From NCBI GenBank assembly GCA_033648345.1, contig GCA_033648345.1_4121.1: a DNA stretch of 64,000 bases; one strand, 5' to 3'. The translations under genes were made by a program, and so were the position numbers. The number at the start of each line of letters is the position of its first letter. Positions within the stretch are counted from its first letter, which is position 1. The notes beneath the pieces are model-generated. The model worked only from the letters and a program-made list of their open reading frames with translations, was not told where the DNA came from and made no database searches. Of this stretch, positions 10,578-51,248 are shown piece after piece. Source of the stretch: a phage.

Positions 10578-10578
10578 T

Positions 10579-11646: not shown

Positions 11647-11656
11647 GGAAAGTACA

Positions 11657-12211: not shown

Positions 12212-12220
12212 AGGGTGCTG

Positions 12221-12789: not shown

Positions 12790-12986
12790 AGACGTTTCGT
12801 TTTCACAGGCCGCAGGGGGGGGTCAAAAAAAATTTTCGCTGAAAAACATGTTAAGGTATATGTTTAATATAAAGTTTTAAAATGTGTTCACAGAGTACAG
12901 TTCATGTTTCCTGAAACAAAAAATACCCCGCCGCGAACGTTCTCCTTATATTGGAGTTTACCTTATTAATTACAGTTGAGATTAAG

Positions 12987-36991: not shown

Positions 36992-37521
36992 AAGAAACAT
37001 GTATATTATCATTTATGAGATGTAACCCAATACATCACGGACATGGTTTAGTGTTTGAAAAAGCTCAAGCACTACAAGAACAGTACAATGCTGATTTGAA
37101 AATATTCCTTAGTACCAGTACTGATGCCGTCAAAAACCCATTACCTCCTGAACTGAAAATGTACTATACAGAAGGATTTTACCCATCTGTACAAGAAAAT
37201 ATCTATACAGAAGATAATCTGTTTGATATAATGAGAGAACTGGATGGAAAGTACTTAGATGTTCTTTTCATATGTGGTTCAGATAGACTTGAACCATTCC
37301 AAAAAACACTTGACACGTACAATGGGAAGTTATATAATTTTTGTTCAATCAAGGCAGTTCAAGCTGGAATTGACCGAAATGTAAGTCGCTACAGTTCCAC
37401 ACAGATGCGTGAGTTTGCCAAGAATGAAGATTTTAATAGCTTCAGTACTTTTCTACCTGGTAATGATGATGCACTGAAAATTAAACTATTTGAAGATGTA
37501 ATAAAATACATGAGGAAATAA
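36988..37521 (+). CDS. Nucleotidyltransferase, HxGH (HIGH) motif family (cytidylyl/adenylyltransferase-like)
   Basis: 177 aa; N-terminal FMRCNPIHHGHGLV matches the (T/H)xGH nucleotide-binding signature; exact substrate not assignable. Confidence 0.5.
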   Translation: MKETCILSFMRCNPIHHGHGLVFEKAQALQEQYNADLKIFLSTSTDAVKNPLPPELKMYYTEGFYPSVQENIYTEDNLFDIMRELDGKYLDVLFICGSDRLEPFQKTLDTYNGKLYNFCSIKAVQAGIDRNVSRYSSTQMREFAKNEDFNSFSTFLPGNDDALKIKLFEDVIKYMRK

Positions 37522-38689: not shown

Positions 38690-38695
38690 CACATA

Positions 38696-38723
38696 TAGCC
38701 CGACATAAGTTCGGGCTATTTTT
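38696..38723 (+). terminator. Rho-independent terminator
   Basis: TAGCCCGA-CATAAGT-TCGGGCTA 8 bp hairpin followed by TTTTT. Confidence 0.7.
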
Positions 38724-38735
38724 GTAAGGGGAAAT

Positions 38736-39005
38736 ATGAATTACAAACATATACAATTCACTTATATGGAATTATTTAAATTACACCATAATCACAGAAG
38801 TACTAACACAATTAATAAAAATGCGTTTACTCATAAATTATGGTCAAATTACCTAGAAGAATTACGTGAGTATTTTATTGATACTGAAATTTTCATTAAT
38901 GGAAAAAAACGAAAGATACTTAGAGTCGATAGTTTTGGTGGTAGATTAGTACTTTCATATAAATTTGATAACGACTTATTCTCTGTTGATTTGGTGAATA
39001 TATGA
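38736..39005 (+). CDS. Family C small protein
   Basis: 89 aa; N-terminal HIQFTYMELF; paralog of the next four genes. Confidence 0.6.
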   Translation: MNYKHIQFTYMELFKLHHNHRSTNTINKNAFTHKLWSNYLEELREYFIDTEIFINGKKRKILRVDSFGGRLVLSYKFDNDLFSVDLVNI

Positions 39006-39262
39006 ATTATAAAGATTTCCAATTAACATTCAAGTGCATTCGTGACCTAGCAAATAAAAATAATAGTATATTTTTAGAAGATACATGTATTGAAATGATT
39101 AATATTGTGCGTGAGAGGATTAAAGAAAAATTCAGTACTGTAATTATCAACAACGATCATGCAGAATTTTCAGATATAATCATTAAGCTCGATGGTAAAG
39201 TAGAGGTACAGTTCTACACTGATTTTGGATTTACGAGTGTTCCTCTGGAGATATTCCCTTGA
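39002..39262 (+). CDS. Family C small protein
   Basis: 86 aa; DFQLTFKCI; ATGA overlap. Confidence 0.6.
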   Translation: MNYKDFQLTFKCIRDLANKNNSIFLEDTCIEMINIVRERIKEKFSTVIINNDHAEFSDIIIKLDGKVEVQFYTDFGFTSVPLEIFP

Positions 39263-39570
39263 AATTAAATTTGAATGATGTTCAATTCACGTATAAAAAT
39301 ATATATGGTTTGTATGACATGTATCTTTTTAGTGGGAAGATTGGTGAACATGTCGAATCAAAAGAATCACCATTTATTAATAATTACTATGATTACTTAG
39401 ATTCTATTGCTGAATATATAAAAAAGAATTACAGTACTTACACTGATGGAGATGATATATTTGAATATTCAGGTGTAAAATCTTATCAAGGTATTATCCA
39501 TGTAGAATTTCTTGAAAAAACTGATAGGGAATTTATGGAGATTAAAGTTATGAAGTTAACGGACCTATAA
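39259..39570 (+). CDS. Family C small protein
   Basis: 103 aa; DVQFTYKNIYGLY. Confidence 0.6.
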   Translation: MKLNLNDVQFTYKNIYGLYDMYLFSGKIGEHVESKESPFINNYYDYLDSIAEYIKKNYSTYTDGDDIFEYSGVKSYQGIIHVEFLEKTDREFMEIKVMKLTDL

Positions 39571-39580
39571 GAGTTGACAT

Positions 39581-39892
39581 ATGAATATTAATGATATACA
39601 ATTCACATACAAATTTTTGTATATCCAATACGCTACGGTTGATGCTGGAGAATATCTCTACGGTGAAATCTATCGTTCGGTATGGATAAAGTTTTTGGAT
39701 GAATTACATGAATATTACCATGATTTGTGTATAGTTCGTGATAATAAAATATACAAATTCCGCGATATTGTTAGTCATAGCGGTAAGCTACGATTGGAAT
39801 TAAGTACTGATAGTGATGTTGATTGGATTGGTGTAAATTTACTGGAGTTGGAGAATGAAAAACAACTTAAAGGAAATACAAGTATTTTATAA
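39581..39892 (+). CDS. Family C small protein
   Basis: 103 aa; DIQFTYKFLYIQY. Confidence 0.6.
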   Translation: MNINDIQFTYKFLYIQYATVDAGEYLYGEIYRSVWIKFLDELHEYYHDLCIVRDNKIYKFRDIVSHSGKLRLELSTDSDVDWIGVNLLELENEKQLKGNTSIL

Positions 39893-40139
39893 ATTCTTAT
39901 ACTTGTCATATGTAAAAGATGAGTACTATGAAAGTGTGTATTATTTTTTATGGCAACATTACCGTACTATAGTAAGAGATTCATATATAGGAAAATCTAT
40001 CATATCCAATGGTGAAAAATGTATATGTACTGATGTTGTTAGTTTTAATGGTTCTTTAACACTGTGTTTCAGATGCGATAATAATAGTGGGTCATTTTCA
40101 TTAAACGTATATCAGTTAGAAGGAATAAATTTTGAATAA
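39855..40139 (+). CDS. Family C small protein
   Basis: 94 aa; EIQVFYKFLYLSY. Confidence 0.6.
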   Translation: MKNNLKEIQVFYKFLYLSYVKDEYYESVYYFLWQHYRTIVRDSYIGKSIISNGEKCICTDVVSFNGSLTLCFRCDNNSGSFSLNVYQLEGINFE

Positions 40140-40332
40140 ATGTCCATATTGCAACAGTACTCAATTAGCTCGTTTCCGTTTAGATTCAGACTGGGCCACT
40201 GGTGCTGGTGATTTCTTTCCCATCAATGATGATTCGGAATACACTGAAGAACAGCACAAAGATTTTGATAAATCATGGCGACCTGACATTGAGTGCATTT
40301 ATTGCCTTAATTGTGAGCGTATCCATGACTAA
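40132..40332 (+). CDS. Zinc-ribbon protein
   Basis: 66 aa; paired CxxC motifs (CPYCNS ... CIYCLNC). Confidence 0.55.
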   Translation: MNKCPYCNSTQLARFRLDSDWATGAGDFFPINDDSEYTEEQHKDFDKSWRPDIECIYCLNCERIHD

Positions 40333-40588
40333 AGCTGAACTGATCGTGCAAACACTGCGTTTATTGAGGGATTTAGATATCCCACGCATGGATGTGAAAC
40401 TTGAAGATATCTACATTGAATCTCTTAGTGAAGATTACACCGATACCGTAATGATGCTGAATGACGTGCTTTATCGTATAGATAGCATCAGTCGTCTTGG
40501 AAGTACTTTAAAAGTGAATATGGAAAGAGTTGATAAACTTTACGTACATATATATAGTCTACCCATTTCAATATTAAACTATAGATGA
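40325..40588 (+). CDS. Hypothetical protein
   Basis: Track ORF 40202..40588; in-frame ATG at 40325 (MTKAELIV) overlaps upstream stop. Confidence 0.5.
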   Translation: MTKAELIVQTLRLLRDLDIPRMDVKLEDIYIESLSEDYTDTVMMLNDVLYRIDSISRLGSTLKVNMERVDKLYVHIYSLPISILNYR

Positions 40589-40875
40589 ATATTATATTGA
40601 TACAAAAAACATATGCGTTATTGATGAAAGAATATACTAATACTTATGATGAAAAGTGCAGTGCAAATCATAATATGTATAAATTCATTACTCAAGAGTA
40701 CAGGGATTATATATATGCTGCGTTAGTTGGTAGATATTTCAGTACTAAAAAACGTAAAGAACTCAAAGTTGTAGATATTACTTTTTTCTACAACGGGCAT
40801 ATAACAATTCATGGTGTGGAACATAATTCACAAATATATCGTAACTACTCATCCAATGAGGTAACATTTTTATGA
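40585..40875 (+). CDS. Family C small protein
   Basis: 96 aa; LIQKTYALLMKEY; ATGA overlap. Confidence 0.55.
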   Translation: MNIILIQKTYALLMKEYTNTYDEKCSANHNMYKFITQEYRDYIYAALVGRYFSTKKRKELKVVDITFFYNGHITIHGVEHNSQIYRNYSSNEVTFL

Positions 40876-41045
40876 GAGCATTATTTTTTATCTGGAGTCT
40901 TTTCTCACTAGCAGTACTGACAGTAAGTGGGATTTGTTTACTTTCGACAATGAATGTCTGGTACATTAATTTACTATTCCCATTCGTAGGTGTAGGTTTA
41001 GGATTTACTTTACATAGTGTTTGTAAGGATTTTAATGGCAAATAA
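40872..41045 (+). CDS. Small membrane protein (57 aa)
   Basis: Read by hand; ATGA overlap with upstream gene; two hydrophobic segments; below track cutoff. Confidence 0.35.
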   Translation: MRALFFIWSLFSLAVLTVSGICLLSTMNVWYINLLFPFVGVGLGFTLHSVCKDFNGK

Positions 41046-41319
41046 ATCGAATGAAGTACTTGTTGCTGAAACAATGAAGATGGTTTATGCCATAACAACT
41101 AGTAATGATTTGTCTTACCCAATTAAGTCCAAGTTGAGGGATATAACTCTTCAGGTTATACAGCAGTACTACAAATCTAAACACAAAAGTATTATTAATG
41201 TTTATCGTGACTATGAAAGGATTCGCATTTTGTTCTGGAACAAGAATCGAGTTCGTTCGGAATGTGATATAGAAAACTTTAAATTTGAGAATCTTTATTG
41301 TTACAAAGCGGGACAATAG
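41035..41319 (+). CDS. Hypothetical protein
   Basis: Track ORF 41017..41319; in-frame ATG at 41035 (MANKSNEV). Confidence 0.5.
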   Translation: MANKSNEVLVAETMKMVYAITTSNDLSYPIKSKLRDITLQVIQQYYKSKHKSIINVYRDYERIRILFWNKNRVRSECDIENFKFENLYCYKAGQ

Positions 41320-41337
41320 CTCAAGTGGTGATATAAT
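41311..41337 (+). promoter_or_regulatory. Candidate promoter with extended -10 (GTGATATAAT)
   Basis: TGaTATAAT box about 35 nt upstream of RBS AAGGAG; -35 weak (GGACAA). Confidence 0.4.
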
Positions 41338-41377
41338 ATTGGATGAGGAACAATAACTAACACAAGGAGTGTGTAAA

Positions 41378-42106
41378 GTGCTTGACCGTATCCGTTTCGC
41401 TACAGAGATGGCGAATCAACTCAATATTGCAAATTTCCAAATGTTAACATCTGTTATGGCTGAACATGCTGCGGCATATTCATCTAGCGGTATACAATGT
41501 GGACAAGCTAACATGTTAGCTGATGTTTATAGTGAAGTTCAAAGCAAACAATATAGCGTAAAGACATACAAGGATAAGTTCGTAAGTCTTTATATGAATG
41601 AAGATATTTCAGAAGACCGCAAATTCACCGATTTTATTATTGAACGCCGTATTAGTGGGGTTTCAGACCCAAATGCAGCAAGTGATATTGTATTCGATGA
41701 GGTATTAAAAGATATATATGAAAATGAATTGAAAAGTAAGAATCATTACAATGTACGTGAAACTAACACAGTGCTAGTTGGATATGATGAAGACGACCAA
41801 TATTTCTATTTTCGTATAACAGAAGTTCCATTTGAATATAAAAAACCATCCACTACATCGGTAAAAGAATTCACTGAGAAGAGTAAAAACTTCAAGAAAC
41901 ACGAAGGAAACCGTTGTAGTATTAATGGTTATGATGAAAATGGTGTTCATGTTTATGAATGGGTTTCACCTAATTGCCAAACATACACCCGTTGCTTAAA
42001 GAAACGTTATAATTTAGAAGATAATGAATCCTTCTACTTTAAAGTTAAGAAACAAGGTTATACTCGCCCTGAAGATTCAGAATTGATGGGTATGGTATAT
42101 TTCTAA
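41378..42106 (+). CDS. Hypothetical protein
   Basis: Track ORF 41369..42106 (GTG); second in-frame GTG at 41378 has better spacing from AAGGAG. Confidence 0.55.
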   Translation: MLDRIRFATEMANQLNIANFQMLTSVMAEHAAAYSSSGIQCGQANMLADVYSEVQSKQYSVKTYKDKFVSLYMNEDISEDRKFTDFIIERRISGVSDPNAASDIVFDEVLKDIYENELKSKNHYNVRETNTVLVGYDEDDQYFYFRITEVPFEYKKPSTTSVKEFTEKSKNFKKHEGNRCSINGYDENGVHVYEWVSPNCQTYTRCLKKRYNLEDNESFYFKVKKQGYTRPEDSELMGMVYF

Positions 42107-42115
42107 GGAACTGTT

Positions 42116-42397
42116 ATGGATTTTTACCTACACACATGGTCATACGAACAATACATTACATTATATCTTGAGATTATTAATACTGATCCCAGATATGGTT
42201 GTGATTTCGCTGATATTATAAAAGAGTATGCAGATGAGTTTGAGTTTGTATATCTTGGTTCTGAACTATTTGTAAAGAGTGTAGGTAAAACCGGACGCAT
42301 CACTGAAATTGATTATGATACTGTTAGTGTGAATTTCTATGTTGATTTTCCTTGTGATGGCGTTGATGGTGTATATTGTCTATATGAAATAATTTAA
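42116..42397 (+). CDS. Hypothetical protein
   Basis: 93 aa track ORF. Confidence 0.5.
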   Translation: MDFYLHTWSYEQYITLYLEIINTDPRYGCDFADIIKEYADEFEFVYLGSELFVKSVGKTGRITEIDYDTVSVNFYVDFPCDGVDGVYCLYEII

Positions 42398-42404
42398 ATT
42401 TTAA

Positions 42405-42428
42405 GGCCAGCGTTTGCTGGTCTTTTTT
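42405..42428 (+). terminator. Rho-independent terminator
   Basis: GCCAGC-GTTT-GCTGG hairpin followed by TCTTTTTT. Confidence 0.55.
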
Positions 42429-42441
42429 CGCAGGTACAAAG

Positions 42442-42744
42442 ATGCTCAGTATAGATTTAATTAACAGTACTATAAAGTTGTTGGCTGATGTAGTGAGAGA
42501 ATCCAATGGAACTGTATACACATCAATGTATAAAATCTTTGAACGATACATCAAGGATTGTAATATATCCTTATATGGACTGGCTGTTGATATAGACGAC
42601 CACTATGAAATTAATACTTCATATAAAACTGGAATGTTAATTGGTATTAATATAAAGATGGGATATTTTCCTTATTACTGTATAGGATTACCAGATAGTA
42701 CTATGGTAGATTACCCAGCCAGTACTATTAAACTAAGAGGATAG
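42442..42744 (+). CDS. Hypothetical protein
   Basis: 100 aa track ORF. Confidence 0.5.
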   Translation: MLSIDLINSTIKLLADVVRESNGTVYTSMYKIFERYIKDCNISLYGLAVDIDDHYEINTSYKTGMLIGINIKMGYFPYYCIGLPDSTMVDYPASTIKLRG

Positions 42745-42748
42745 AATT

Positions 42749-43438
42749 TTGATTAAAGATTTAGATAGAATTTTATATGTACTGAGGGGTGTAATTACAT
42801 TACAACCACAGGTTAATCGTATGGAGAGAGCCTTTGAATTAAAATCAAGAGAAACTCCATATTCACATATATCAAATGTAGTTGGATCATTCAGTACTGA
42901 AGACTCGCCTTATGATATTTGTGTATGTGAAGTACAGCCAAGTTCGGATCTTGGATTTGCTATTTTTGATAAAAATCAAAATCTCATTAGTATGTTTCAG
43001 TGCAATAATCCTTTTTGGAAAACATGCCTGTATCCAGAGTGGGCTATGCTTGATCCAACAAAGAGTTCCATTAAAGTATATGACTCTAAAAATGATGAAG
43101 TCGTTATTGATTTGGATGAGTCAATGTCAGAGGAAGAACACTTTCAGCTAATGATGATGCGTGCTATGCCTGAGTACCATGCAATGATTAACACGGTGCA
43201 ATACATTAAGGATACCATGCCATCATTGCGTACACATGAGTTTTGCCATCCTGTATTGTATGAACATTTGGATTTAGATTTCAGTACTATTAAATTTAAA
43301 GATAATGTTATTAATTACATTCAAGAGAATGTTAAATTTGATTTTATTAGTACAATGACAAATAATCCAAATACTAATTTCAGGCATCAGTACAATGAAT
43401 CTTTGTCTGGTGGTCGTGATACAACTTGGTGGAAATAA
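42749..43438 (+). CDS. Family B-like protein
   Basis: 229 aa; TTG start after RBS AGAGGA; motif SEEEHFQLMMMRAM. Confidence 0.5.
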   Translation: MIKDLDRILYVLRGVITLQPQVNRMERAFELKSRETPYSHISNVVGSFSTEDSPYDICVCEVQPSSDLGFAIFDKNQNLISMFQCNNPFWKTCLYPEWAMLDPTKSSIKVYDSKNDEVVIDLDESMSEEEHFQLMMMRAMPEYHAMINTVQYIKDTMPSLRTHEFCHPVLYEHLDLDFSTIKFKDNVINYIQENVKFDFISTMTNNPNTNFRHQYNESLSGGRDTTWWK

Positions 43439-43439
43439 T

Positions 43440-43703
43440 ATGAATATCCAAGATAGATTGCAATTGTTGCACACACTTGAAGAAGCTGCTTTTGAACTTG
43501 TTAATAAAATTGCACAAGAACTCCCAAAAGGAACCAAAGTTCGTGTTCGTGAAATGGATTATTTAACGGGAAAAATTGATGAAAAAGTTCTAACAGTGAT
43601 CAAAGTAACATACTATGAATCTGAGTTATCAATTCAATGTAAGTCGGATAATGGTTACGTTTCCTACTATGGCACAGATGTAGATATAGAGGTAATAAAA
43701 TGA
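43440..43703 (+). CDS. Family D small protein
   Basis: Track ORF 43395..43703; in-frame ATG at 43440; PKGTKVRVREMDY...VIKVTY pattern shared with family D. Confidence 0.5.
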   Translation: MNIQDRLQLLHTLEEAAFELVNKIAQELPKGTKVRVREMDYLTGKIDEKVLTVIKVTYYESELSIQCKSDNGYVSYYGTDVDIEVIK

Positions 43704-44842
43704 CCCTTTTACAAATATATGAAGATTTAATGCACTTATGTAATACCCGTGAGGCTTTCTTTTATGTGGATCATAAAAGTCCTGCTGGTGGAACGTATCG
43801 TGTATTCAGTTATCGTCTAGCATCATATACTGATTTCATGCAACCCAATGCATTAGAAACCCGTGGTTCTATGTGGGAAATTGATGAAGAAGGTAATATG
43901 ATTCGTTGTGCTGCTCGTACTATGAAAAAGTTCTTCAATGCTTACGAGAATCCTGCTACAATGTTCCCTGCTGATACCACATTCGATGACATTGCAGTAG
44001 TGATGCCTAAGTTGGATGGTTCAGTAATCAGTACTTACCGTGATAATGACGGTGTAATTCGTTGTAAATCACATACTGCATTGTATTCAGACCATGCGAT
44101 TAACAGTGCTCGTCTTCTCAATGAGAACCAAAATTTGTATCAATACATTGACGAAGCAGACCGTTTGGGCTATACTGTTAATCTGGAGTATACAAGTCCA
44201 GAGTACCGTATTGTATTACCATATCAGGTTGAACAATTATTTGTACTAAACGTTCGCAATCGTAAGAGTGGTGAACTATTATGTGGTTCTGCATTACGTA
44301 ATAAGTTCCCATGCCTTGCACAGTACAGTACTAACATGACAGGTAAAGATATTCATCACACTTTCCCTGCTCGTGCTACATTCAAAGAAAGTGTTGAAGA
44401 AGTTAAGAAAATGCTTGACATTGAAGGTTTTGTGTGCATCCTAAATAATGGTACAATGTGCAAAATCAAAACCGACTGGTATTGTTCTTTGCATTTAACG
44501 AAAGACAGTATTATAATCGATTCCCATTTATATGAAGCTGTATTAAATGGTTCGAGTGATGATTTAAAACAGTTGTTCAGTACTGACGAATATGCTACCC
44601 AAAAGATATTAAGAATGGAACAACTAGTCTTTTCGTGCTATAATGCTTTACAAGATGAAGTTGAAAGCTTCGTCAAGGAACACAAGCACTTGGAGCGAAA
44701 GGAATTCGCTAAGAAGGTTCAGGAGTGTTTAACTAATGAACTGAATCGTCAGGGCTTGGCCTTTGCAATGTACAACAATAAGAAAGTCGATTACAAAGAG
44801 ACTCTTATTAAGTACATGAAAATTGTACTAAAGGATTTTTAG
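43700..44842 (+). CDS. rnlA: RNA ligase 1 (T4 RnlA-like)
   Basis: 380 aa; N-terminal region closely matches T4 Rnl1 from memory (FFYxDxxSxxGxTYRxFSYxxASYxD...ALExRG); KxDG adenylation motif MPKLDGS; C-terminal KIKxDWY. Confidence 0.8.
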   Translation: MTLLQIYEDLMHLCNTREAFFYVDHKSPAGGTYRVFSYRLASYTDFMQPNALETRGSMWEIDEEGNMIRCAARTMKKFFNAYENPATMFPADTTFDDIAVVMPKLDGSVISTYRDNDGVIRCKSHTALYSDHAINSARLLNENQNLYQYIDEADRLGYTVNLEYTSPEYRIVLPYQVEQLFVLNVRNRKSGELLCGSALRNKFPCLAQYSTNMTGKDIHHTFPARATFKESVEEVKKMLDIEGFVCILNNGTMCKIKTDWYCSLHLTKDSIIIDSHLYEAVLNGSSDDLKQLFSTDEYATQKILRMEQLVFSCYNALQDEVESFVKEHKHLERKEFAKKVQECLTNELNRQGLAFAMYNNKKVDYKETLIKYMKIVLKDF

Positions 44843-44871
44843 TACTATCTAGCCTAGCACAAGGAGAAGTG

Positions 44872-45126
44872 ATGGCTAAACCTAAGTATAAAAATGACGG
44901 TTCCCTTTCTCCGACAGAATTCAGGAAAATACAAGAAGAAATCGATGAATTACAGCACAAACGCTCTAAGAAAGGTGTGAAGATTAGTAAGAAACGAATC
45001 GAGAATACTTTCGGGTGTAGTAGTACTGAATACAAGAAGAAAAGGAAACCAAAAGGTGTTAAGCCGAGAATACATGATGTAACTCGCTATACATCAAAAC
45101 GTGAAAATAAATTCGACCCACTATAA
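44872..45126 (+). CDS. Small highly basic protein
   Basis: Track ORF 44869 (GTG); ATG at 44872 after AAGGAGAAG; Lys/Arg-rich. Confidence 0.5.
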   Translation: MAKPKYKNDGSLSPTEFRKIQEEIDELQHKRSKKGVKISKKRIENTFGCSSTEYKKKRKPKGVKPRIHDVTRYTSKRENKFDPL

Positions 45127-45135
45127 GGAGTTCAT

Positions 45136-45372
45136 ATGAAAGTTGAAGTTCAGCATAGTATTGTTCAGGATATGTCAGTAGTTAAATTTCTTTCCTTGAA
45201 AGATTATTTCAGATGTATCAAGTTCCTAGAAGAATCTCAATTACAGTGGACCCCATTAAAGTACAGTTCATCCAATGATACTGCTAGTATTCGTTGTGAT
45301 GAATCTGTACTTGTGAAAATCTCCAAGCGATTTGGGATTGGGAAATACAATGATAAACAATGCACAAAGTAA
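45136..45372 (+). CDS. Hypothetical protein
   Basis: 78 aa track ORF. Confidence 0.5.
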   Translation: MKVEVQHSIVQDMSVVKFLSLKDYFRCIKFLEESQLQWTPLKYSSSNDTASIRCDESVLVKISKRFGIGKYNDKQCTK

Positions 45373-45661
45373 TTTACTATATATAAAGTCAGTAGAAGCT
45401 GAAATTAAAAATTCAGTACAAACTATCGTCGATGAAATGATTGACAAATACAAGAGCAATCTTATTGGAAAGAAAGTCAGATGTTGGGATTACACATTCA
45501 AACACTGGTACGATTCCGAGATTGTGAAAGTTGATGTGAATACTGATAGTAATGGTCTAATTAATGGTATTGCGTATATTGGTGTTTTAATACGCAAGGG
45601 AACACCACAGGAATGGCTCACATATCATAATATAGAGCATGTTAAATTTTTAGAGGATTAA
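45350..45661 (+). CDS. Family D small protein
   Basis: Track ORF 45332..45661; in-frame ATG at 45350; LIGKKVRCWDY...IVKVDV. Confidence 0.5.
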   Translation: MINNAQSNLLYIKSVEAEIKNSVQTIVDEMIDKYKSNLIGKKVRCWDYTFKHWYDSEIVKVDVNTDSNGLINGIAYIGVLIRKGTPQEWLTYHNIEHVKFLED

Positions 45662-45664
45662 AGG

Positions 45665-46597
45665 ATGCCAACTATCACACTAACAGTTGGATTGCCTGGG
45701 TGTGGTAAAACTACATGGGCAGTGCAAGAGATTAAAAAAGCCAAATCCAAGACTATCAACATCAACCGTGATGATATTCGTGAATCTATGGCTGGGTCAC
45801 ATGATGCTTACAAATTCAACGATGCTAATGAGCAGTACGTAACTAATTTACAGTTCAGTGCAGCAAATTCAGCAGCAGAGAATGGTTGGAACATCATCAT
45901 ATCCGATACGAACCTTAAACAACATTTCCGTAATCTATGGAAAGTATGGGCTATAGATAATGGTTATGATTACAAAGAAAAGAACTTCTATGATGATTTT
46001 GTACCTAATGAAGACCGTGGTGCAGATGTTCATGAATTCTTTAAGATTAAAGAGTTCGTAAAACTTTGTAAGAAATATAACCTCCAGCGTGAGCGTTCAG
46101 TACAAGATAATATCATTGACACTATGGCAGATACGTACTATTATAGTAAAGCATTGCACATTGGTTACTATGGTAATTCACGAGAAGCTGCTATTATCGT
46201 TGATATCGACGGTACTCTTGCTCATAAATGGGGCCGTAACCCGTTCGATGAAAGTACTGTACTCCAGGATACACCAGACGAAGAAGTTATTTTATCTGTT
46301 ATCGCTGAAGCAGTTTTTCATAAACGCAAGATTATCGTCATGAGTGGGCGTACTGAAGGGTGTCGTGCTGATACCGAACAGTGGCTTAAGAATTGGGGTG
46401 TTCCTTATGATGCGTTGTTTATGCGAGGCATCGATGACAAACGTCCTGATGATGTTGTAAAATTCGACCTGTACATGAAAAATGTGGTTGATCATTACGA
46501 TGTTAAAAAGGTTTATGATGATAGATCACAAGTTGTATTCATGTGGCGTAAGCTACTTGGGTTGAAAGTAATGCAAGTTGCTGAAGGTAATTTCTAA
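45665..46597 (+). CDS. pseT: Polynucleotide 5'-kinase / 3'-phosphatase (T4 Pnk-like)
   Basis: 310 aa; N-terminal P-loop GLPGCGKTTWA and NINRDD; C-terminal HAD phosphatase motif VDIDGTLA, VMSGR, KVYDDRSQVV; collinear with T4 Pnk from memory. Confidence 0.85.
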   Translation: MPTITLTVGLPGCGKTTWAVQEIKKAKSKTININRDDIRESMAGSHDAYKFNDANEQYVTNLQFSAANSAAENGWNIIISDTNLKQHFRNLWKVWAIDNGYDYKEKNFYDDFVPNEDRGADVHEFFKIKEFVKLCKKYNLQRERSVQDNIIDTMADTYYYSKALHIGYYGNSREAAIIVDIDGTLAHKWGRNPFDESTVLQDTPDEEVILSVIAEAVFHKRKIIVMSGRTEGCRADTEQWLKNWGVPYDALFMRGIDDKRPDDVVKFDLYMKNVVDHYDVKKVYDDRSQVVFMWRKLLGLKVMQVAEGNF

Positions 46598-46603
46598 TAC
46601 AAA

Positions 46604-46633
46604 AGGGATCATATATTGGTCCCTTTTTCTTTT
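46604..46633 (+). terminator. Rho-independent terminator
   Basis: AGGGATCA-TATAT-TGGTCCCT hairpin followed by TTTTTCTTTT, 7 nt after the pseT stop. Confidence 0.65.
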
Positions 46634-46646
46634 AAGGTACATTATA

Positions 46647-46823
46647 GTGAATGTAACAACACAGATGTTATTACGAAATGAATACTTAGAAAATATAGAA
46701 AGATTCTATAGAATGTCTTTGTATAAAAATAAGCATAAAAAATATAGTTTTGATAAACTACTAAATTCTAGTACTGAAGATTATCTATTTTCATCAATGT
46801 TTTATGTGAGAGGATTATTGTAA
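46647..46823 (+). CDS. Small hypothetical protein
   Basis: Track ORF 46578..46823 crosses the terminator so its 5' part is rejected; in-frame GTG at 46647 (or ATG 46665) after AAGG. Confidence 0.3.
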   Translation: MNVTTQMLLRNEYLENIERFYRMSLYKNKHKKYSFDKLLNSSTEDYLFSSMFYVRGLL

Positions 46824-47083
46824 TGGATAAATTTCACACAGATATATCACAGATAGGTAATCTTATCAATAGTCTAATTACTGATTTAGAAGAAAAGTAC
46901 TTAGGACGAAATGTATACTTAGAAATGTATGAAACATATGGTGTTATTGATATGATTTATTACAGTGCATTGAAGTGTGAAATACGTTTAACTGTATGTT
47001 TATATGAAAAAGGTACATTTAAAAGAAGTACTGCAATTCGCCAAGTTGGAGTTGATGACATGGAATTATACGAGGAACAATGA
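46823..47083 (+). CDS. Family D small protein
   Basis: 86 aa; YLGRNVYLEMY...EIRLTV. Confidence 0.5.
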   Translation: MDKFHTDISQIGNLINSLITDLEEKYLGRNVYLEMYETYGVIDMIYYSALKCEIRLTVCLYEKGTFKRSTAIRQVGVDDMELYEEQ

Positions 47084-47334
47084 TGTTTGAGCAGGACTTA
47101 GAGCTATTCAAAAGTTATATCGAGTACTTAGTTACATTAGAAAAAGAGCTAACTACAAAGTATAAAGGTATTCGTGTTCTGTGCTGGTATGATGATTCGG
47201 ATTATAAACGTGAACTAACAATCGACCGAATCTATTTCATTGACGGTGTATTGAATGTGCATGGTGTAAATGATTTTGGACATTCATATACTTATTCGAA
47301 TAATGCTAAATTCAAGAGGATCGACCATGAATGA
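47080..47334 (+). CDS. Family D small protein
   Basis: 84 aa; YKGIRVLCWYDD...VLNVHGV; ATGA overlap. Confidence 0.5.
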   Translation: MMFEQDLELFKSYIEYLVTLEKELTTKYKGIRVLCWYDDSDYKRELTIDRIYFIDGVLNVHGVNDFGHSYTYSNNAKFKRIDHE

Positions 47335-47629
47335 GTACTATCAAAATTTATTCAATTACATAAAACAAATAGATGATCTTGCTTTCGATTTTCTTAGTAC
47401 TGAAAAAGTTCTTGAACCTCTCTATTATGATTGTATTAGTTCACTATGTTTAGATGAAAAAGAGATATTAGCAAACAACTTACCATCCACGGTCTGTACA
47501 ATCAATGGTTCCAAGGCATTAGTGTGCGAGGTTAATTTTCATAAATCACTTAATACAATTGTTTACAAGTTCGATAACACTGTGTTTAAACATGTAACAA
47601 GTAATATTAAATCTGTGAGGTTCTTATGA
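47327..47629 (+). CDS. Hypothetical protein
   Basis: Track ORF 47270..47629; in-frame ATG at 47327 (MNEYYQ) gives ATGAATGA overlap. Confidence 0.5.
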   Translation: MNEYYQNLFNYIKQIDDLAFDFLSTEKVLEPLYYDCISSLCLDEKEILANNLPSTVCTINGSKALVCEVNFHKSLNTIVYKFDNTVFKHVTSNIKSVRFL

Positions 47630-47922
47630 ATTTAAAACTTTTGTTAGAACAGGTACATTTATTGTATAGCTGTGCTGATGGTTCTGATAAGGAGTATAGT
47701 GAAGTTTATTTAGAACTGTTTAGAACGGAAATACACATAATTAGAAGATACTTAATTGATAATAAAACTGAAGTAAAAGTTAGATACCATAATGGTACTT
47801 TAAAGAATGGTATAATTATTGGATTGATAGTTACACGAATGTCTAGTAATATTAAAGTTGCAGTTAGATTAATGACTGATGATGGTGTCTACACCATAGA
47901 AGTAAGTGAGATTATATATTAA
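47626..47922 (+). CDS. Family D small protein
   Basis: 98 aa; KTEVKVRYHNG...VAVRL; ATGA overlap. Confidence 0.5.
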   Translation: MNLKLLLEQVHLLYSCADGSDKEYSEVYLELFRTEIHIIRRYLIDNKTEVKVRYHNGTLKNGIIIGLIVTRMSSNIKVAVRLMTDDGVYTIEVSEIIY

Positions 47923-48228
47923 ATGGATATACAAACATTCAATAAACTAAAGTACTATGACAATGGTTTTGCTATTATCATTGATGAACTAGATGGAATA
48001 CCATATGAGTATCATAATGATGTAATGAAGATAGTAAAAAGTATTTGTAATGATTTAAAAACTATTTTCGAAAATGAATATGTATACGACTTAGGTACAA
48101 ACAATAAGAAACTATACATAAAGAAATTCTGTGGAACGCATTGTGGTCTGATGGTTGATTTAGGTTTAAGTGCTGACAACAATTTCGAAGCATGTAGTTT
48201 ATATCTGGATGAAATGCGAATCTCATGA
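47923..48228 (+). CDS. Hypothetical protein
   Basis: 101 aa track ORF. Confidence 0.5.
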   Translation: MDIQTFNKLKYYDNGFAIIIDELDGIPYEYHNDVMKIVKSICNDLKTIFENEYVYDLGTNNKKLYIKKFCGTHCGLMVDLGLSADNNFEACSLYLDEMRIS

Positions 48229-48254
48229 GACATATCTTGATTCGGTGATATAAT
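48227..48254 (+). promoter_or_regulatory. Candidate promoter GAGACA-N16-TGaTATAAT
   Basis: Extended -10 GTGATATAAT about 20 nt upstream of RBS GGAGTAG and the GTG start at 48286. Confidence 0.45.
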
Positions 48255-48285
48255 TTCATTACAACACTGACATGGAGTAGTTGTT

Positions 48286-48615
48286 GTGAATAACGATTTT
48301 TTAAAAATGTGGGAAAAAACAATAGTAATTCTATCTAGTTCATTAATGCACATTTTCAGTACTGATAATTCTTATAGTTCACATACATTTGATTTAATAT
48401 GTAATAACTATGTAAATGGTATATCAGATGAAATATGTCCATTCATTGCGTATTCACCGGATGGTATTGAAGAATTTAATATATGCAACATCAGTTGTGG
48501 TTTTGGTGATTGGCTTGTGTTAAATGATCGAGGTGGAATCTGTTTATACATCGAAGATATTGGTAAATTTATATACAAAGGAGTAGAATATGTTAACAAT
48601 CGCAGCAGTTATTAG
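48286..48615 (+). CDS. Hypothetical protein
   Basis: 109 aa; GTG start with RBS GGAGTAG. Confidence 0.5.
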   Translation: MNNDFLKMWEKTIVILSSSLMHIFSTDNSYSSHTFDLICNNYVNGISDEICPFIAYSPDGIEEFNICNISCGFGDWLVLNDRGGICLYIEDIGKFIYKGVEYVNNRSSY

Positions 48616-49186
48616 TGTACTTGGTGTAGTTATTGCAGGTATGCTTGCATACAATTACAATCGTAGTGTTATCGGCTATGTACTACTTAGTCTAGTACTA
48701 ACCCCAGTACTCACCATCGTTACTTTATTAGTTCTAGGTGAACGTAATATCAACTTCATGATTAATGATAAACGTGATCAGGTTACACCAGAACCTGAAA
48801 AAGTTATTCCTGAAGAACAAGAAGAACTTAAAGTTGAAGTTCAAATGCAAGTGAATGTTCACAATGCACTTGATGAAACTGATCCAAAAGTTAATGTTAC
48901 TGTTGTTCCTGTCGTCAATGAAGTAAAGCCTAAAGCAGCACCGAAAAGTACTAAAGCACCAAAGAACACCAAAACTACAAAGAAAGCTCGCTATACTAAA
49001 GGGAAGAATAAAAACAAAGTCCAAGATGAACCACAACAAGGTACACACGACCATACTTCCCATATTATTACAGCAGCCACCACCGCAGCAATCGTAACGC
49101 CATATATCTCTTCTGCTGATACTGGTTCATATGATAGCTCTAGCTGTGATTCAAGCTCTAGTTCAAGTTCCGGTAGCTGTGATTAA
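48590..49186 (+). CDS. Membrane protein with Lys-rich linker and Ser/Cys-rich C-terminus
   Basis: 198 aa; two N-terminal hydrophobic helices, KPKAAPKSTKAPKNTKTTKK stretch, terminal SSSCDSSSSSSSGSCD. Confidence 0.55.
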   Translation: MLTIAAVISVLGVVIAGMLAYNYNRSVIGYVLLSLVLTPVLTIVTLLVLGERNINFMINDKRDQVTPEPEKVIPEEQEELKVEVQMQVNVHNALDETDPKVNVTVVPVVNEVKPKAAPKSTKAPKNTKTTKKARYTKGKNKNKVQDEPQQGTHDHTSHIITAATTAAIVTPYISSADTGSYDSSSCDSSSSSSSGSCD

Positions 49187-49188
49187 CA

Positions 49189-49521
49189 ATGAAACATCTT
49201 GCACAATATAATCAGTACTTGATCGCGTTGCATCAAATGAAAGATGATTTCTATAAAAGTGCAGAAACAGAACTCGTCGGTAAGATAGTAAAATTTACTG
49301 ACGAGTACATCAACCGATATGCGGAAATAGACGATGATCCAGAGTATGAATCATACTACCAGTACATAAATTCCAATACAAGAATGAGAATTATTGAAAT
49401 TATGAAATACGGTATACGTTTAATTGCACAAGTAGAATACATCAATCACGATGCAATTGATGCCGCTGCCTTTGGTGATGAAATAAGTTTAGAATATCTT
49501 ATTCAAATTGATGAGGAATAA
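49189..49521 (+). CDS. Family D small protein
   Basis: 110 aa; LVGKIVKFTDEY. Confidence 0.45.
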   Translation: MKHLAQYNQYLIALHQMKDDFYKSAETELVGKIVKFTDEYINRYAEIDDDPEYESYYQYINSNTRMRIIEIMKYGIRLIAQVEYINHDAIDAAAFGDEISLEYLIQIDEE

Positions 49522-49523
49522 TA

Positions 49524-49739
49524 ATGACTACCTTTTTTGCAATATATGGATTTGTTGCTTTTTGCTCATTTATATGTAACTTTCTAGTACTGAATTGGAA
49601 ATGTTTCAAAGATGAAATCATAACTGCAATGAGTCTACAATCAGCAGCACTGATGGCTATAATTTGGCCAGTAACTATGGTGTATCTTTTTATCTCAATA
49701 ACAAAAGATATTATATCCCACTTCAAGAGAAAGAAATAA
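49524..49739 (+). CDS. Small membrane protein
   Basis: 71 aa; two hydrophobic segments. Confidence 0.5.
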   Translation: MTTFFAIYGFVAFCSFICNFLVLNWKCFKDEIITAMSLQSAALMAIIWPVTMVYLFISITKDIISHFKRKK

Positions 49740-49993
49740 TGTTCAACACCGACTATTCACATTTGCGATATCTTATGTCTTTGGCTGATGATTTTATTAA
49801 TGATTTGAAGCCGAAGTATATTGGACAAGAAGTACGTTTGATAAACTCAAGGGGTTATGGGAAGTACATTATCGCTGATATGTATATTAGCGGTGGTGAA
49901 TGGCGTTTCAAAGTTAATACGTATCTTAAAGATGGTTCTTTTGCAGGTACACAAGTTACAAAACACACTAACATTATATGGTTGGAACAATAA
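49739..49993 (+). CDS. Family D small protein
   Basis: Track ORF 49664..49993; ATG at 49739 overlaps upstream stop (TAATG); YIGQEVRLINSRGYGKY...WRFKV. Confidence 0.5.
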   Translation: MFNTDYSHLRYLMSLADDFINDLKPKYIGQEVRLINSRGYGKYIIADMYISGGEWRFKVNTYLKDGSFAGTQVTKHTNIIWLEQ

Positions 49994-50736
49994 TGAAACA
50001 TTTTTTGGAAGTTACAGTACCGGATGATAAAGATTTATATATCGTTGGTGATTTACACGGTAATGGAAAACTGTGGGATGCTACCAAGAAAGAATTTGGC
50101 ATTACCAATAATGACTATGTTTTTTGTGTAGGTGATGTTATTGACCGTGGTGACCAGAATTCCAAACTACTGTTTGAATTCCTTTTCGGTGAAAACCGTT
50201 TTATGATTGCTGGGAACCACGAGATGATGTGTGTGGACTCCGAAACAATGAGGGATTGGTATCATTGCTGGCAAAGTAATGGTGGTGATAAATTTCTTGA
50301 TGAAGTTGGTGAGACAGGTATACAGTTCTTTCGTCAGTACTTAAAGGAACTCCCTATGATTATCCAAATCAATCACCGAGGATTGAAGATTGGACTAGTT
50401 CATGCTGGTGTTCCATTGGAATATACAACATGGGAACGTTTCGTTAGTGGGACAAAATCACTTAGTGCTGATATAATTGAGAAGTGCTTGTGGGAACGTG
50501 ATACATTCGACTACTGCAAGAAAAATAACACATATTACGTCCCTAGACTTGATGGTATCCATTGCGTCTTTAGTGGTCATACCGCAGTATCCGACCCACT
50601 CATTTATGGTAATCGTATCTGGATTGATAGTCAGTTCTTAACTGGTGATTTGACTCTTGCAACTCCCCAAAGTGGTGGGATGAGATACTTACGTAAAGAA
50701 AAAGATGAGTACTCATTTAACCGCTTCAAAAGGTAA
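49993..50736 (+). CDS. Ser/Thr protein phosphatase (lambda PPase-type metallophosphoesterase)
   Basis: Track ORF 49978..50736; ATG at 49993 overlaps upstream stop; motifs GDLHG, GDVIDRG, GNHE, GHT. Confidence 0.8.
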   Translation: MKHFLEVTVPDDKDLYIVGDLHGNGKLWDATKKEFGITNNDYVFCVGDVIDRGDQNSKLLFEFLFGENRFMIAGNHEMMCVDSETMRDWYHCWQSNGGDKFLDEVGETGIQFFRQYLKELPMIIQINHRGLKIGLVHAGVPLEYTTWERFVSGTKSLSADIIEKCLWERDTFDYCKKNNTYYVPRLDGIHCVFSGHTAVSDPLIYGNRIWIDSQFLTGDLTLATPQSGGMRYLRKEKDEYSFNRFKR

Positions 50737-50740
50737 TAAT

Positions 50741-51010
50741 ATGCATGATGTAGTTAAAAAATACTTAAATGATAGATATGTTGTGAAAAAATCTATTAAT
50801 TCTATCCTAAAAGACCATGCTAATCAAATACGTGAGATTCTATCAAAGAAACTTATTGGTTGCTCAGTTGAATTCAACTACAAAAAGAATGTGGTGAAGA
50901 GTGGAGTTATTAGTCGTGTAGTTGCTGTTTATGACCAAAATGTATATGTTGAAATTGAATATGATGGTAAATTATTACAATTAAGTACTGAAGATTTAAC
51001 ATTTTTATAA
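50741..51010 (+). CDS. Family D small protein
   Basis: Track ORF 50705..51010; in-frame ATG at 50741; LIGCSVEFNYKKN...VYVEIEY. Confidence 0.5.
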   Translation: MHDVVKKYLNDRYVVKKSINSILKDHANQIREILSKKLIGCSVEFNYKKNVVKSGVISRVVAVYDQNVYVEIEYDGKLLQLSTEDLTFL

Positions 51011-51020: not shown

Positions 51021-51248
51021 ATGAAAGTAATTCAAGTTATGGTAGAAAAATACCAAACTGAAGATGGTCGTATTTTTGATTCAGCAAAACAAGCTGAACA
51101 CCATGAACGTATTATTTCTGGTACACGTAAAGTGTGCCCTACATGTAATGGTACACAACAAGTTCCATCTGAAGACTATCGCAGTTATTATGCTTGTCCA
51201 CATTGTGATGGTAAAGGGTTTGTAGAAAAACAAGAGGTATGGAAATGA
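51021..51248 (+). CDS. Small zinc-finger protein (DnaJ-type CxxCxGxG repeats)
   Basis: 75 aa; CPTCNGTQ and CPHCDGKG motifs. Confidence 0.55.
   Translation: MKVIQVMVEKYQTEDGRIFDSAKQAEHHERIISGTRKVCPTCNGTQQVPSEDYRSYYACPHCDGKGFVEKQEVWK

Follow-up and report, generated by a model that had tools for sequence, protein, structure and literature searches.

Small, fast-diverging proteins interleaved with enzyme genes in an Asteriusvirus: two paralog families that are probably branches of one superfamily

Tandem arrays of duplicated genes have been described in the jumbo phages 121Q and G (Hua et al. 2013, PMC3622015), and 22 paralogous ORFs have been reported in CBB (PMC5259590). Fast-evolving duplicated small proteins are an ordinary kind of feature in jumbo phages. 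The two protein families considered here, C and D, share with these systems the lineage, the same-strand tandem duplication of small genes and the accompanying genome expansion. On the other hand, families C and D are far more divergent (mostly 10–30% identity) and are interleaved with enzyme genes. In T4-like phages, too, conserved genes are separated by plastic sets of small accessory ORFs, for example around rnlA/gene 63 and pseT. As in the C/D block, these are small, rapidly varying and non-essential-looking ORFs that lie between conserved early or middle enzymes on one strand and differ in content among close relatives. In the C/D block, however, much of the filler consists of ORFs that are paralogous to one another rather than of unrelated ORFans, and no sequence similarity to T4 ORFs has been found. 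In the literature searched, there is no earlier description of the C and D proteins, no fold assigned to them and no link drawn between the two.

The window, a stretch of 64,000 nucleotides analysed as a whole, belongs to an Asteriusvirus, an E. coli jumbo phage of the 121Q/PBECO4 group. It is 99% identical to WPEC5, Ecwhy_1 and vB_Ec-M-J and 86–89% identical to 121Q and PBECO4. All ORFs assigned to C and D in a preliminary description are present on the + strand, closely packed with overlaps of 4–8 nt, and most are preceded by an SD-like sequence. They are interleaved with rnlA, pseT and a Ser/Thr phosphatase gene, as that description had it, and the same-strand block also carries Pth2 and DNA ligase. 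The statement that family D is scattered singly holds only in part, since 46823–47922 comprises four contiguous genes. At least four small-protein families, A to D among them, had been said to occupy well over half of the window; at strict thresholds A to D cover 37% (22 members in A, 32 in B and 16 in C and D together). A scan for sigma-70-like promoters gave no enrichment (87 found vs 96 expected). Two terminator-like hairpins have been located:

38695..38719, + strand: terminator-like hairpin with a 9-bp stem (5 GC pairs) and a T-run, 17 nt 5' of the first C gene
46601..46627, + strand: terminator-like hairpin just 3' of pseT, ahead of the tandem D block

The C block had been described as bounded by a terminator; the strong hairpin at 38695–38719 is just upstream of the block, and none has been found downstream. 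The members and neighbours of family C, named hereafter by their first position, are as follows:

38736..39005, + strand: family C member 1, 89 aa, beginning MNYKHIQFTY; phmmer 3e-7 to 39581 and 39855; leave-one-out hhalign 98%
39002..39262, + strand: family C member 2, 86 aa; C HMM 6e-6; hhalign 84–93% to 38736 and 39259; leave-one-out 96%
39259..39570, + strand: family C member 3, 103 aa, TTG start; phmmer ~1e-5 and hhalign 96% to 39581
39581..39892, + strand: family C member 4, 103 aa; found by phmmer and hhalign; leave-one-out 98.6%; phrog_21004 (unknown function)
39855..40139, + strand: family C member 5, 94 aa, the modelled C member; found by phmmer, hhalign and leave-one-out
40132..40332, + strand: Zn-ribbon gene (CxxC...CxxC), not a family member, interrupting the C block
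40325..40588, + strand: ORF of 87 aa, possible very divergent member; recruited in the loose iteration only; leave-one-out 33%; P ~0.02 against both strict profiles
40585..40875, + strand: family C member 6, 96 aa, divergent; C HMM 0.003; strict C profile P=9e-4 with a full-length alignment
47626..47922, + strand: C-like member, 98 aa, inside the "D" block, with two helices at the N-terminus according to the alignment; strict C profile 54%, P=1.3e-4 over the full length; D profile P=0.14

Family C is a real paralog family by pairwise phmmer, HMM searches and hhalign of ortholog profiles. Pairwise phmmer searches connect four members (38736, 39259, 39581 and 39855) with one another (1e-5 to 4e-8), and an HMM built from these four recruits 39002 (6e-6) and 40585 (0.003). 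The first five genes, in tandem at 38736–40139, show 60–98% mutual probability in ortholog-profile hhalign. The N-terminal motif of the family is the sole DNA-level repeat, with 29 nt at 76–79% identity at four gene starts. The proposed membership of six holds with a divergent sixth member, but the tandem run is broken before it by the Zn-ribbon gene and the 40325–40588 ORF. The Zn-ribbon protein does not match the family profiles (hhalign, leave-one-out), and in K64-1 its ortholog carries a TFIIS-like annotation.

Family D, described as having about nine members, is also a real paralog family, although it is smaller and less tidy once membership is corrected by profile tests. Its core comprises 45350, 46823, 47080, 49189, 49739 and 50741, which form a 50–91% network of ortholog profiles (only 26–48% for 47080) with clean negative controls. 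In pairwise phmmer, the only match is between 46823 and 49739 (1e-4). Left out one at a time and compared with the pooled profile, five of the six core members score 90–96%, while unrelated neighbouring small ORFs used as negative controls score 0.1–3%; 46823 reaches only 17%, and its placement rests on the pair with 49739. Two ORFs previously listed in D, 47923 and 48286, score like the negative controls (leave-one-out, strict profiles). As a D member, 47626 has been rejected in view of its match to C. The D members and candidates are:

42116..42397, + strand: additional D-like member, 93 aa, absent from the earlier list; strict D profile 73%, P=3e-5; leave-one-out 48%
42442..42744, + strand: weak D-like candidate, 100 aa; P=0.0024 against D; recruited only in the decoy-free run
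43440..43703, + strand: D member with weaker support, directly upstream of rnlA; strict D profile P=6e-4; leave-one-out 74%
45350..45661, + strand: D member directly upstream of pseT, a highly divergent allele; hhalign 52–76% to 49189, 49739 and 50741; leave-one-out 95%
46823..47083, + strand: D member, 86 aa, first in the contiguous four; phmmer 1e-4 and hhalign 88–91% to 49739
47080..47334, + strand: D member, 84 aa; leave-one-out 94%; weak pairwise profile links (26–48%)
47327..47629, + strand: candidate, 100 aa; 69.5% against the loose pooled profile; P 0.02–0.03 against the strict C and D profiles
49189..49521, + strand: D member, 110 aa, with an acidic insertion; hhalign 52–75% to 45350 and 49739; leave-one-out 94%
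49739..49993, + strand: D member directly upstream of the Ser/Thr phosphatase gene, the modelled D member
50741..51010, + strand: D member between the phosphatase gene and a DnaJ-type zinc-finger gene; hhalign 70–76% to 45350; leave-one-out 90%

The 43440 protein is also linked to 45350 through a K64-1 protein (11732–12004; 8e-6 and 3e-4).

These ORFs are short, are annotated only as "hypothetical protein", and have ambiguous starts at 39855, 43440 and 45350, as would be expected if many were not genes and the families were merely a product of automatic ORF calling in AT-rich DNA. This reading is highly implausible, because nearly all orthologous pairs that are divergent enough to be informative have a dN/dS well below 1, every relative fetched has the ORFs conserved and annotated, SD-like motifs and coupled starts are present for most of them, and their folds are predicted with confidence. 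The C and D ORFs are coding.

AF2 models have been obtained for one D and one C member, with pLDDT values of 86 and 91. In the C model (39855, pLDDT 91), helices at residues 5–21 and 26–44 are followed by four strands. In the predicted fold, a 4–5-stranded SH3-like beta-barrel is packed against a single N-terminal helix in D and against a helical hairpin in C, and the junction between helix and barrel carries the motif [YF][IL]G-x-x-[VI] in both families. The helical N-terminus, [YL][IL]G-x-x-V junction and beta-rich C-terminus previously read from the D sequences are matched by these confident models. The C model also matches a 96-aa slurp01 protein (Foldseek TM 0.78, E 1e-4), taken as the 40585 ortholog by length alone, and this match adds to the support for 40585 as a C member. 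Likeness to known SH3-like barrels (Tudor, chromo, KOW, PWWP, R67 DHFR, HspQ/YccV, and the phage domains DUF1653 and DUF4222) is at the fold level only; C and D have no Pfam family match, aromatic cage or KOW motif, and their N-terminal helix or hairpin is absent from those domains. Barrels of this type are very widespread, and the fold could have emerged or been acquired on two occasions.

Families C and D had been regarded as independently expanded. Their shared architecture, junction motif and bridging sequences point instead to two branches of one superfamily, and we consider common ancestry probable, although the direct profile match is marginal. A loose, decoy-controlled iterative HMM search merges the two families, with 0 of 1074 decoys recruited over 15 iterations. 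A bridging protein from Turkey5/JNE01 (13033–13332) matches the strict C profile at P=5.6e-5 and the strict D profile at P=4.9e-4, both beyond the noise floor. The two AF2 models come from one mixed C and D alignment, so that part of their mutual resemblance is built in; among viral structures, an independent BFVD model of a C member ranks 10th in its match to the D model (TM 0.62/0.66). The families also share a 12-kb neighbourhood, with C-like members inside the D block (47626, and 13033 in JNE01). The opposite reading, that C and D are unrelated, holds that a helix-plus-small-barrel arrangement converged or was recruited independently and that the link reflects profile drift together with AT-rich compositional and secondary-structure bias. 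It draws on the separation of the two clades at strict inclusion thresholds, where no HMM cross-match appears, on the PHROGs remote-homology clustering, which keeps all members apart (a separate PHROG of unknown function for each of the 10 scanned), and on the direct hhalign comparison, whose probability is just 6% (P ~0.006–0.01) where the noise floor of unrelated controls reaches P ~0.01. In addition, the loose profile finally took in a cytidylyltransferase of phage A4 (22 bits), a clear false positive, and its late recruits are therefore unreliable. Still, the C–D comparison is the best of the cross-family comparisons, its alignment is in register across the junction motif and first strands, and its score was reached by only 1 of 150 block shuffles; families A and B match neither C nor D (P>=0.04). 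Unrelated origins thus appear unlikely, at perhaps a third of the weight given to common ancestry.

The C and D proteins are ~85–110 aa long, soluble and mostly acidic. They are absent from the virion proteome of phAPEC6, which has no entry between gp347 and gp549, the range in which rnlA is gp376c (PMC7247149, Table 1). The family alignment has no invariant or near-invariant column; conservation is limited to the hydrophobic core, a turn glycine and the junction motif, which points to non-enzymatic binding scaffolds. The overall explanation that we favour, with a probability of roughly 55%, is that C and D are paralogous, fast-diverging, non-virion small proteins of Asteriusvirus that form one superfamily and are putative diversified binders. 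Their favoured role, as diversified protein-binding accessory factors in host takeover, is proposed tentatively and is given less weight. Such scaffolds would use their variable surfaces to bind different partners, with host or defence proteins the most plausible targets during takeover.

The positions of the genes among rnlA, pseT and Pth2 could suggest Sm-, KOW- or Tudor-like modules that bind RNA or tRNA and work with the adjacent RNA-repair and tRNA enzymes. This role is improbable: the proteins are mostly acidic (median pI 5.2; 14 of 18 members and candidates have a pI below 6.5), which speaks against a general affinity for nucleic acids, Pfam LSM, Hfq and KOW matches are absent even at E<=1, and the alignment has no conserved basic or aromatic surface position.

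A marginally better, though still poor, case can be made for D members as accessory subunits or specificity factors that each serve the enzyme encoded next to them (RnlA, PseT or the Ser/Thr phosphatase), co-translated with these enzymes and binding them. The 43440 gene and the rnlA start overlap by 4 nt, pseT begins 3 nt after the end of 45350, and the phosphatase start abuts 49739, whose omega of 0.04–0.07 indicates enzyme-like constraint. The idea of conserved partners, raised in the preliminary description, stands to the extent that the sites directly upstream of rnlA and pseT hold a member in all six Asteriusvirus loci fetched and in K64-1. It fails in Munch and CBB (RnlA identity 59–60%), which keep rnlA, pseT and the phosphatase gene in order without a detectable member, and the K64-1 phosphatase gene is preceded by one for a membrane protein instead. 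T4-type RnlA and PseT (T4 gp63 and PseT) function without such partners. The member upstream of pseT is also the most variable (31–38% between close phages); an obligate subunit of an enzyme conserved at 78–96% would not be expected to vary in this way. Adjacency itself is little informative, because nearly all genes of the block overlap or abut their neighbours.

Returning to diversified binders, omega is mostly 0.12–0.3 for the C and D genes vs 0.04–0.13 for the enzymes, so that they are under purifying selection, relaxed relative to the enzymes. A simple arms-race model might lead one to expect pervasive positive selection, of which their omega values give no sign. The families probably originated by repeated tandem duplication within a plastic same-strand block that also holds RNA-repair and accessory enzymes, and are probably maintained by birth-and-death turnover and whole-allele exchange between co-circulating phages. 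The syntenic locus has 15 members in the window, 16 each in 121Q and ph0011, 13 in Turkey5/JNE01, 20 in A4 (21 recruited minus the cytidylyltransferase), 10 in K64-1, and none detected in Munch and CBB. The C block of the window is a mosaic, ph0011-like on the left, 121Q-like in the middle and ph0011-like on the right; the 38736 allele is ph0011-like (84%) vs 56% identity to 121Q. The 45350 allele has 31–38% identity to its positional counterparts, while the flanking genes have 78–96%, and its dS against 121Q, ph0011 and A4 is 0.95–1.4 vs 0.24–0.74 for the flanking genes.

By sequence, relatives appear confined to Asteriusvirus and, more weakly, K64-1/RaK2; only 21 clusters match among 1.84 billion representatives in a large-database search, all Asteriusvirus-like. 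Uncharacterised small proteins of RaK2 (for example H6X4H5, H6X4H4, H6X4J9, H6X4K0) and K64-1 (gp586, gp589, gp597, gp601, gp603, gp606–608, gp615 and gp616) resemble C and D in size and in their syntenic positions around rnlA and pseT. Their identity to window members is ~30% or less. In the large searches they do not reach whole-database significance; against the pooled family profile they match at P 1e-5 to 1e-7. The RaK2 proteins, but not those of K64-1, are among the best viral structural matches (TM 0.56–0.60).

Family C (about 38736–40875) and family D (about 43440–51010) are groups of small-protein paralogs proposed in a preliminary description of this DNA, beside two further paralog families, A and B. 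In megablast searches, 38700–43400 and 43395–51010 match 36 phage records, all from Escherichia/Salmonella jumbo phages of the genus Asteriusvirus. Identity over these two stretches is 99% to WPEC5, Ecwhy_1, fEgEco12 and vB_Ec-M-J, and 86–89% to 121Q and PBECO4. The window has a GC content of 30–36%, and its + strand carries essentially all genes. The syntenic rnlA regions of 121Q, A4, Turkey5, JNE01, ph0011, K64-1 (Alcyoneusvirus), Munch and CBB (Mimasvirus) have been compared. All these loci have a common backbone of Dam methylase, cytidylyltransferase, rnlA, pseT, Ser/Thr phosphatase, Pth2-like hydrolase and DNA ligase, and small ORFs occupy the gaps between these genes. A sigma-70 promoter scan showed no excess over shuffles, and the evidence on transcription units is limited to three terminator-like hairpins. 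The ORFs discussed below, named by their start coordinates, are as follows.

38736, + strand, family C
39002, + strand, family C
39259, + strand, family C
39581, + strand, family C
39855, + strand, family C
40325, + strand, possible very divergent member
40585, + strand, family C, divergent sixth member
42116, + strand, D-like
43440, + strand, linked to family D, precedes rnlA
45350, + strand, family D core, precedes pseT
46823, + strand, family D core
47080, + strand, family D core, weaker
47327, + strand, candidate member
47626, + strand, C-like
49189, + strand, family D core
49739, + strand, family D core
50741, + strand, family D core

Family C has been recovered as proposed, with six ORFs in 38736–40875 whose similarity goes beyond chance. 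Among the 154 ORFs of the window, 38736, 39259, 39581 and 39855 are linked by phmmer at 1e-5 to 4e-8, and an HMM of these four recruits 39002 (6e-6) and 40585 (0.003). When per-gene profiles built from orthologs across eight loci are compared by hhalign, the first five members show mutual probabilities of 60–98%, against at most 3% for the negative controls, 13 unrelated neighbouring small ORFs. The sixth member, 40585, aligns full-length with a strict C profile of 28 sequences (P = 9e-4), and the C model superposes on a 96-aa slurp01 protein, taken as the 40585 ortholog, with a Foldseek TM of 0.78 (E 1e-4). The expected N-terminal [IV]QFTYK-type motif is present as IQFTYM, FQLTFK, VQFTYK, IQFTYK, IQVFYK and IQKTYA, and is the only trace of the C repeats at the DNA level (29 nt, 76–79% identity, at four gene starts). 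The depiction of family C as a tandem block bounded by a terminator holds on one side: a strong terminator-like hairpin lies directly upstream (38695–38719), but none was found downstream. The block is also broken by a Zn-ribbon gene (40132–40332) and the ORF 40325–40588. The zinc-finger proteins 40132–40332 (K64-1 ortholog annotated as TFIIS-like) and 51021–51248 (annotated as DnaJ-like in 121Q), both with CxxC...CxxC, match each other with an hhalign probability of 56–64%.

Pairwise phmmer within the window detects a single D pair, 46823–49739, and was set aside for this family as too insensitive; a two-member HMM gained zero further recruits. With ortholog profiles, 45350, 46823, 47080, 49189, 49739 and 50741 form a connected hhalign network at 50–91%, with weaker values of 26–48% for 47080. 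In leave-one-out comparisons with the pooled family, five of these six core members reach 90–96%; the exception is 46823, at only 17%, which is tied to the others by an 88–91% pairing with 49739. A K64-1 protein matches both 43440 (8e-6) and 45350 (3e-4), which links 43440 to family D, and 43440 itself matches the strict D profile at P = 6e-4. The ORF 42116, absent from the original list, is D-like (P = 3e-5). On the other hand, 47626 aligns from end to end with the C profile (P = 1.3e-4) but does not match D, and 47923, 48286 and 41035 score like negative controls in leave-one-out and strict-profile comparisons. The proposed count of about nine D paralogs in 43440–51010 is thus roughly right, but the membership is mixed: the six core members and 43440 are supported, 47626 fits C better, 47327 is a candidate and 47923 is unsupported. 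Nor are the D genes all scattered singly, as 46823–47922 comprises four contiguous genes.

Two neighbouring ORFs deserve comment. The mechanical ORF 46578–46823 (81 aa) starts within pseT and passes through a terminator-like hairpin (46601–46627); the 121Q annotation has a shorter ORF only and that of ph0011 has none, and the 5' part of this ORF is probably non-coding. The 48641–49186 protein carries a transmembrane segment at its N-terminus, is rich in lysine in its middle part and has a low-complexity tail of mainly Ser and Cys at its C-terminus (SSSCDSSSSSSSGSCD). Its divergence is fast (65% to 121Q), and its weak K64-1 counterpart is annotated as a membrane protein.

We consider a common ancestry of C and D probable, at roughly 70%. 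The two families have the same architecture and the same junction motif, [YF][IL]G-x-x-[VI], between the N-terminal helix and the beta-barrel. Seeded with D and run at a loose threshold (E < 1e-3) on 537 ORFs of the window and eight related loci, an iterative HMM search reaches all of C and recruits 0 reversed or shuffled decoys in 15 rounds. In its last round, a helix-strand stretch brought in the A4 cytidylyltransferase, a clear false positive; the loose search has therefore not been used alone for membership, and strict clades were re-derived. The next-best matches of the strict C profile fall in the D block of other phages, and the Turkey5/JNE01 protein 13033–13332 rises above the noise floor against the strict C profile (P = 5.6e-5) as well as the strict D profile (P = 4.9e-4). 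The D model also matches a BFVD model of a C member that was built independently (TM 0.62/0.66) and ranks 10 among viral proteins. Against a common origin, the C and D clades stay separate under strict thresholds, the loose profile took in the false positive just described, and the C and D models made here share one alignment. The direct C-versus-D hhalign comparison is marginal (P = 0.006, 6% probability), and its real score is reached by 1/150 block shuffles; it is nevertheless the best of all cross-family comparisons, those with A and B giving P ≥ 0.04. In the cytidylyltransferase (36988–37521; A4 locus L002 4769–5308), the stretch LFDIM.EL.GKY.DVLFICGSDR...YNG.LY mimics the C/D junction motif; its score with the drifted pooled profile is 22 bits. 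This mimicry is a caution for motif-based counts of C/D members.

Structures have been predicted with AlphaFold2 on a 30-sequence alignment. The model of 49739 (D; pLDDT 86) has a helix at 7–27 followed by five strands, and that of 39855 (C; pLDDT 91) has helices at 5–21 and 26–44 followed by four strands. Both models have the same order of elements, (helix)-helix-beta-barrel, a likeness to be read with the caveat that both come from one shared alignment. On the modelled structures, the C/D proteins are assigned to the SH3-like barrel fold class, with a small, strongly bent five-stranded beta-barrel superposable on known SH3-like domains. Closer assignments have been rejected: for a Tudor/chromo "royal family" reader, with its conserved aromatic cage, there is no invariant or nearly invariant alignment column and no Pfam match; an Sm/Hfq-like protein, judged by Sm1/Sm2 motifs, Pfam LSM or Hfq membership and a close structural match to Sm or Hfq, is not supported; and KOW membership was considered and rejected.

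Database searches with C/D gave no Pfam family match, matches only to unknown-function PHROGs, and no significant match in a PDB sequence search. Two larger searches, one with a profile against 5.8 billion clustered proteins and one a full HMMER scan over 1.84 billion representatives, returned only 21 matches each, all close orthologs from Asteriusvirus-like genomes, and therefore added little depth to the alignments. The K64-1/RaK2 relatives of C/D are detectable only in small local searches. Strict decoy-checked HMM iteration over the window counts 22 members for A, 32 for B and 16 for C+D, and these families together occupy 37% of the window, not the "well over half" initially estimated. 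Among the ORFs that the converged pooled C/D profile narrowly missed, 6026–6436 (136 aa, E = 0.0046) scored best; it lies far from the C/D block, and its match may be due to chance or to a distant relationship. The ORF 42749–43438 (229 aa), immediately ahead of the D member that adjoins rnlA, belongs to family B (phmmer 2.7e-4 to 27686–28237) as a stray from the main B array at ~4–32 kb of the window. Its conservation in 121Q, ph0011 and A4 is 91%, and in Munch a weak counterpart lies upstream of rnlA.

The C/D members change much faster than the genes around them: they are 29–58% identical to their Turkey5 counterparts, compared with 76–86% for rnlA, pseT and the phosphatase. Pairwise dN/dS is mostly 0.12–0.3 for C/D members versus 0.04–0.13 for the enzymes, which identifies the C/D ORFs as real coding genes under relaxed purifying selection; these pairwise values show no sign of pervasive positive selection. 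The number of members per syntenic locus is 15 in the window, 16 in 121Q and in ph0011, 20 in A4 (21 recruited minus the cytidylyltransferase), 13 in Turkey5/JNE01, 10 in K64-1, and 0 in both Munch and CBB. The families thus fit the tandem paralog arrays of jumbo phages, in which adjacent same-strand copies vary in number between related phages. In an NJ tree of the C clade, the main subtypes are older than the split of the Asteriusvirus lineages, and A4 has lineage-specific extra copies, with three of the 38736 type and none of the 39002 and 39259 types.

Identity to individual relatives changes along the C array. The stretch 38736–39570 is ph0011-like (83–87%, versus 56–76% to 121Q), 39581–40139 is 121Q-like (98–99%, versus 57–59% to ph0011), and 40325–40875 is again ph0011-like (97–100%). 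Judged by this pattern of identities, the C array is a mosaic. In family D, the 45350 allele is 31–38% identical to every positional counterpart (dS ~1–1.4), while its flanking genes are 88–96% identical to those of 121Q, ph0011 and A4 (dS 0.24–0.74; pseT is 78% identical to that of Turkey5). This far greater divergence of 45350 indicates allele replacement and not simple fast evolution. The data support one route of genome growth in the RaK2/121Q-group jumbo phages in which genes are duplicated in tandem and then diverge and exchange alleles. Tandem duplication arrays with >30 similar genes have been noted in general terms for 121Q (PMC3622015), as have abundant paralogs in RaK2 and CBB (CBB: PMC5259590). 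A literature search found no description of families C and D, their fold or their probable unity. At window ~41319–41369 (intergenic), the close relatives vB_Ec-M-J, EC.P1, TH47 and ph0011 carry ~1.5 kb of extra DNA, which is annotated in ph0011 (locus L008 4506–5990) as a 495-aa hypothetical protein; "endonuclease" is among the annotations under the vB_Ec-M-J match. This DNA is absent from the window and resembles a mobile insertion.

That no residue is invariant speaks for the C/D proteins being binding scaffolds rather than enzymes. The proteins are soluble, and most of them are acidic (median pI 5.2). The virion proteome of phAPEC6, determined by MS, comprises 62 proteins with no entry between gp347 and gp549 (PMC7247149); C/D members are absent from this virion list (rnlA is gp376c in that phage), although small proteins can escape MS. 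The C/D block also carries the anti-PrrC RNA-repair pair RnlA/PseT, and the phAPEC6 authors have noted that the phage may counter Prr. The searches showed no match to a characterised anti-defence protein: a PDB profile search gave only E = 0.32 to one anti-CRISPR chain, and the BFVD matches are all uncharacterised proteins.

An earlier suggestion makes the D members conserved, enzyme-specific partners of the neighbouring enzymes. It has some support, as members directly precede rnlA and pseT, with coupled starts, in all Asteriusvirus loci and K64-1. The co-occurrence fails, however, in Munch and CBB, where rnlA, pseT and the phosphatase are syntenic but no member is detected, and the pseT-adjacent member is extremely variable. 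We tentatively suggest that the C/D proteins could form a repertoire of small protein-binding accessory factors for host takeover or counter-defence. A more specific version appears unlikely: here the SH3-like binders would be a diversified, recombining repertoire, each neutralising or redirecting a different host factor or defence protein, and the 12-kb block an accessory counter-defence locus with alleles shuffled between co-circulating jumbo phages.

The RaK2/121Q-group jumbo phages carry hundreds of unannotated small genes, and ~16–18 of those in the 12-kb block can be grouped into one or two families defined by their fold, leaving fewer independent unknowns. The helix plus SH3-like barrel offers a scaffold for experiments, and the most variable members (e.g. 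45350 and the C block) suggest themselves for host-range or anti-defence screens. The result is a refinement of annotation and leaves the known picture of phage biology unchanged.

The palindrome AGTACT is found at 190 sites in the window, versus 17 ± 4.7 in dinucleotide shuffles (~11-fold excess), with the extended preference CAGTACTG. The sites occur window-wide (e.g. 3627...63743), with deserts at 1–3626 and 5335–13101. Their spread over all three reading frames (72/47/66) shows that the excess is not a codon effect. A literature search found no report of it for these phages. The excess is 8–12.5-fold in the 121Q, A4, Turkey5, JNE01, ph0011, K64-1, Munch and CBB loci, and the sites are conserved at 63–78% of aligned positions versus 27–52% for other hexamers. 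AGTACT may serve as a site for modification, for recognition or for a nucleoid protein.
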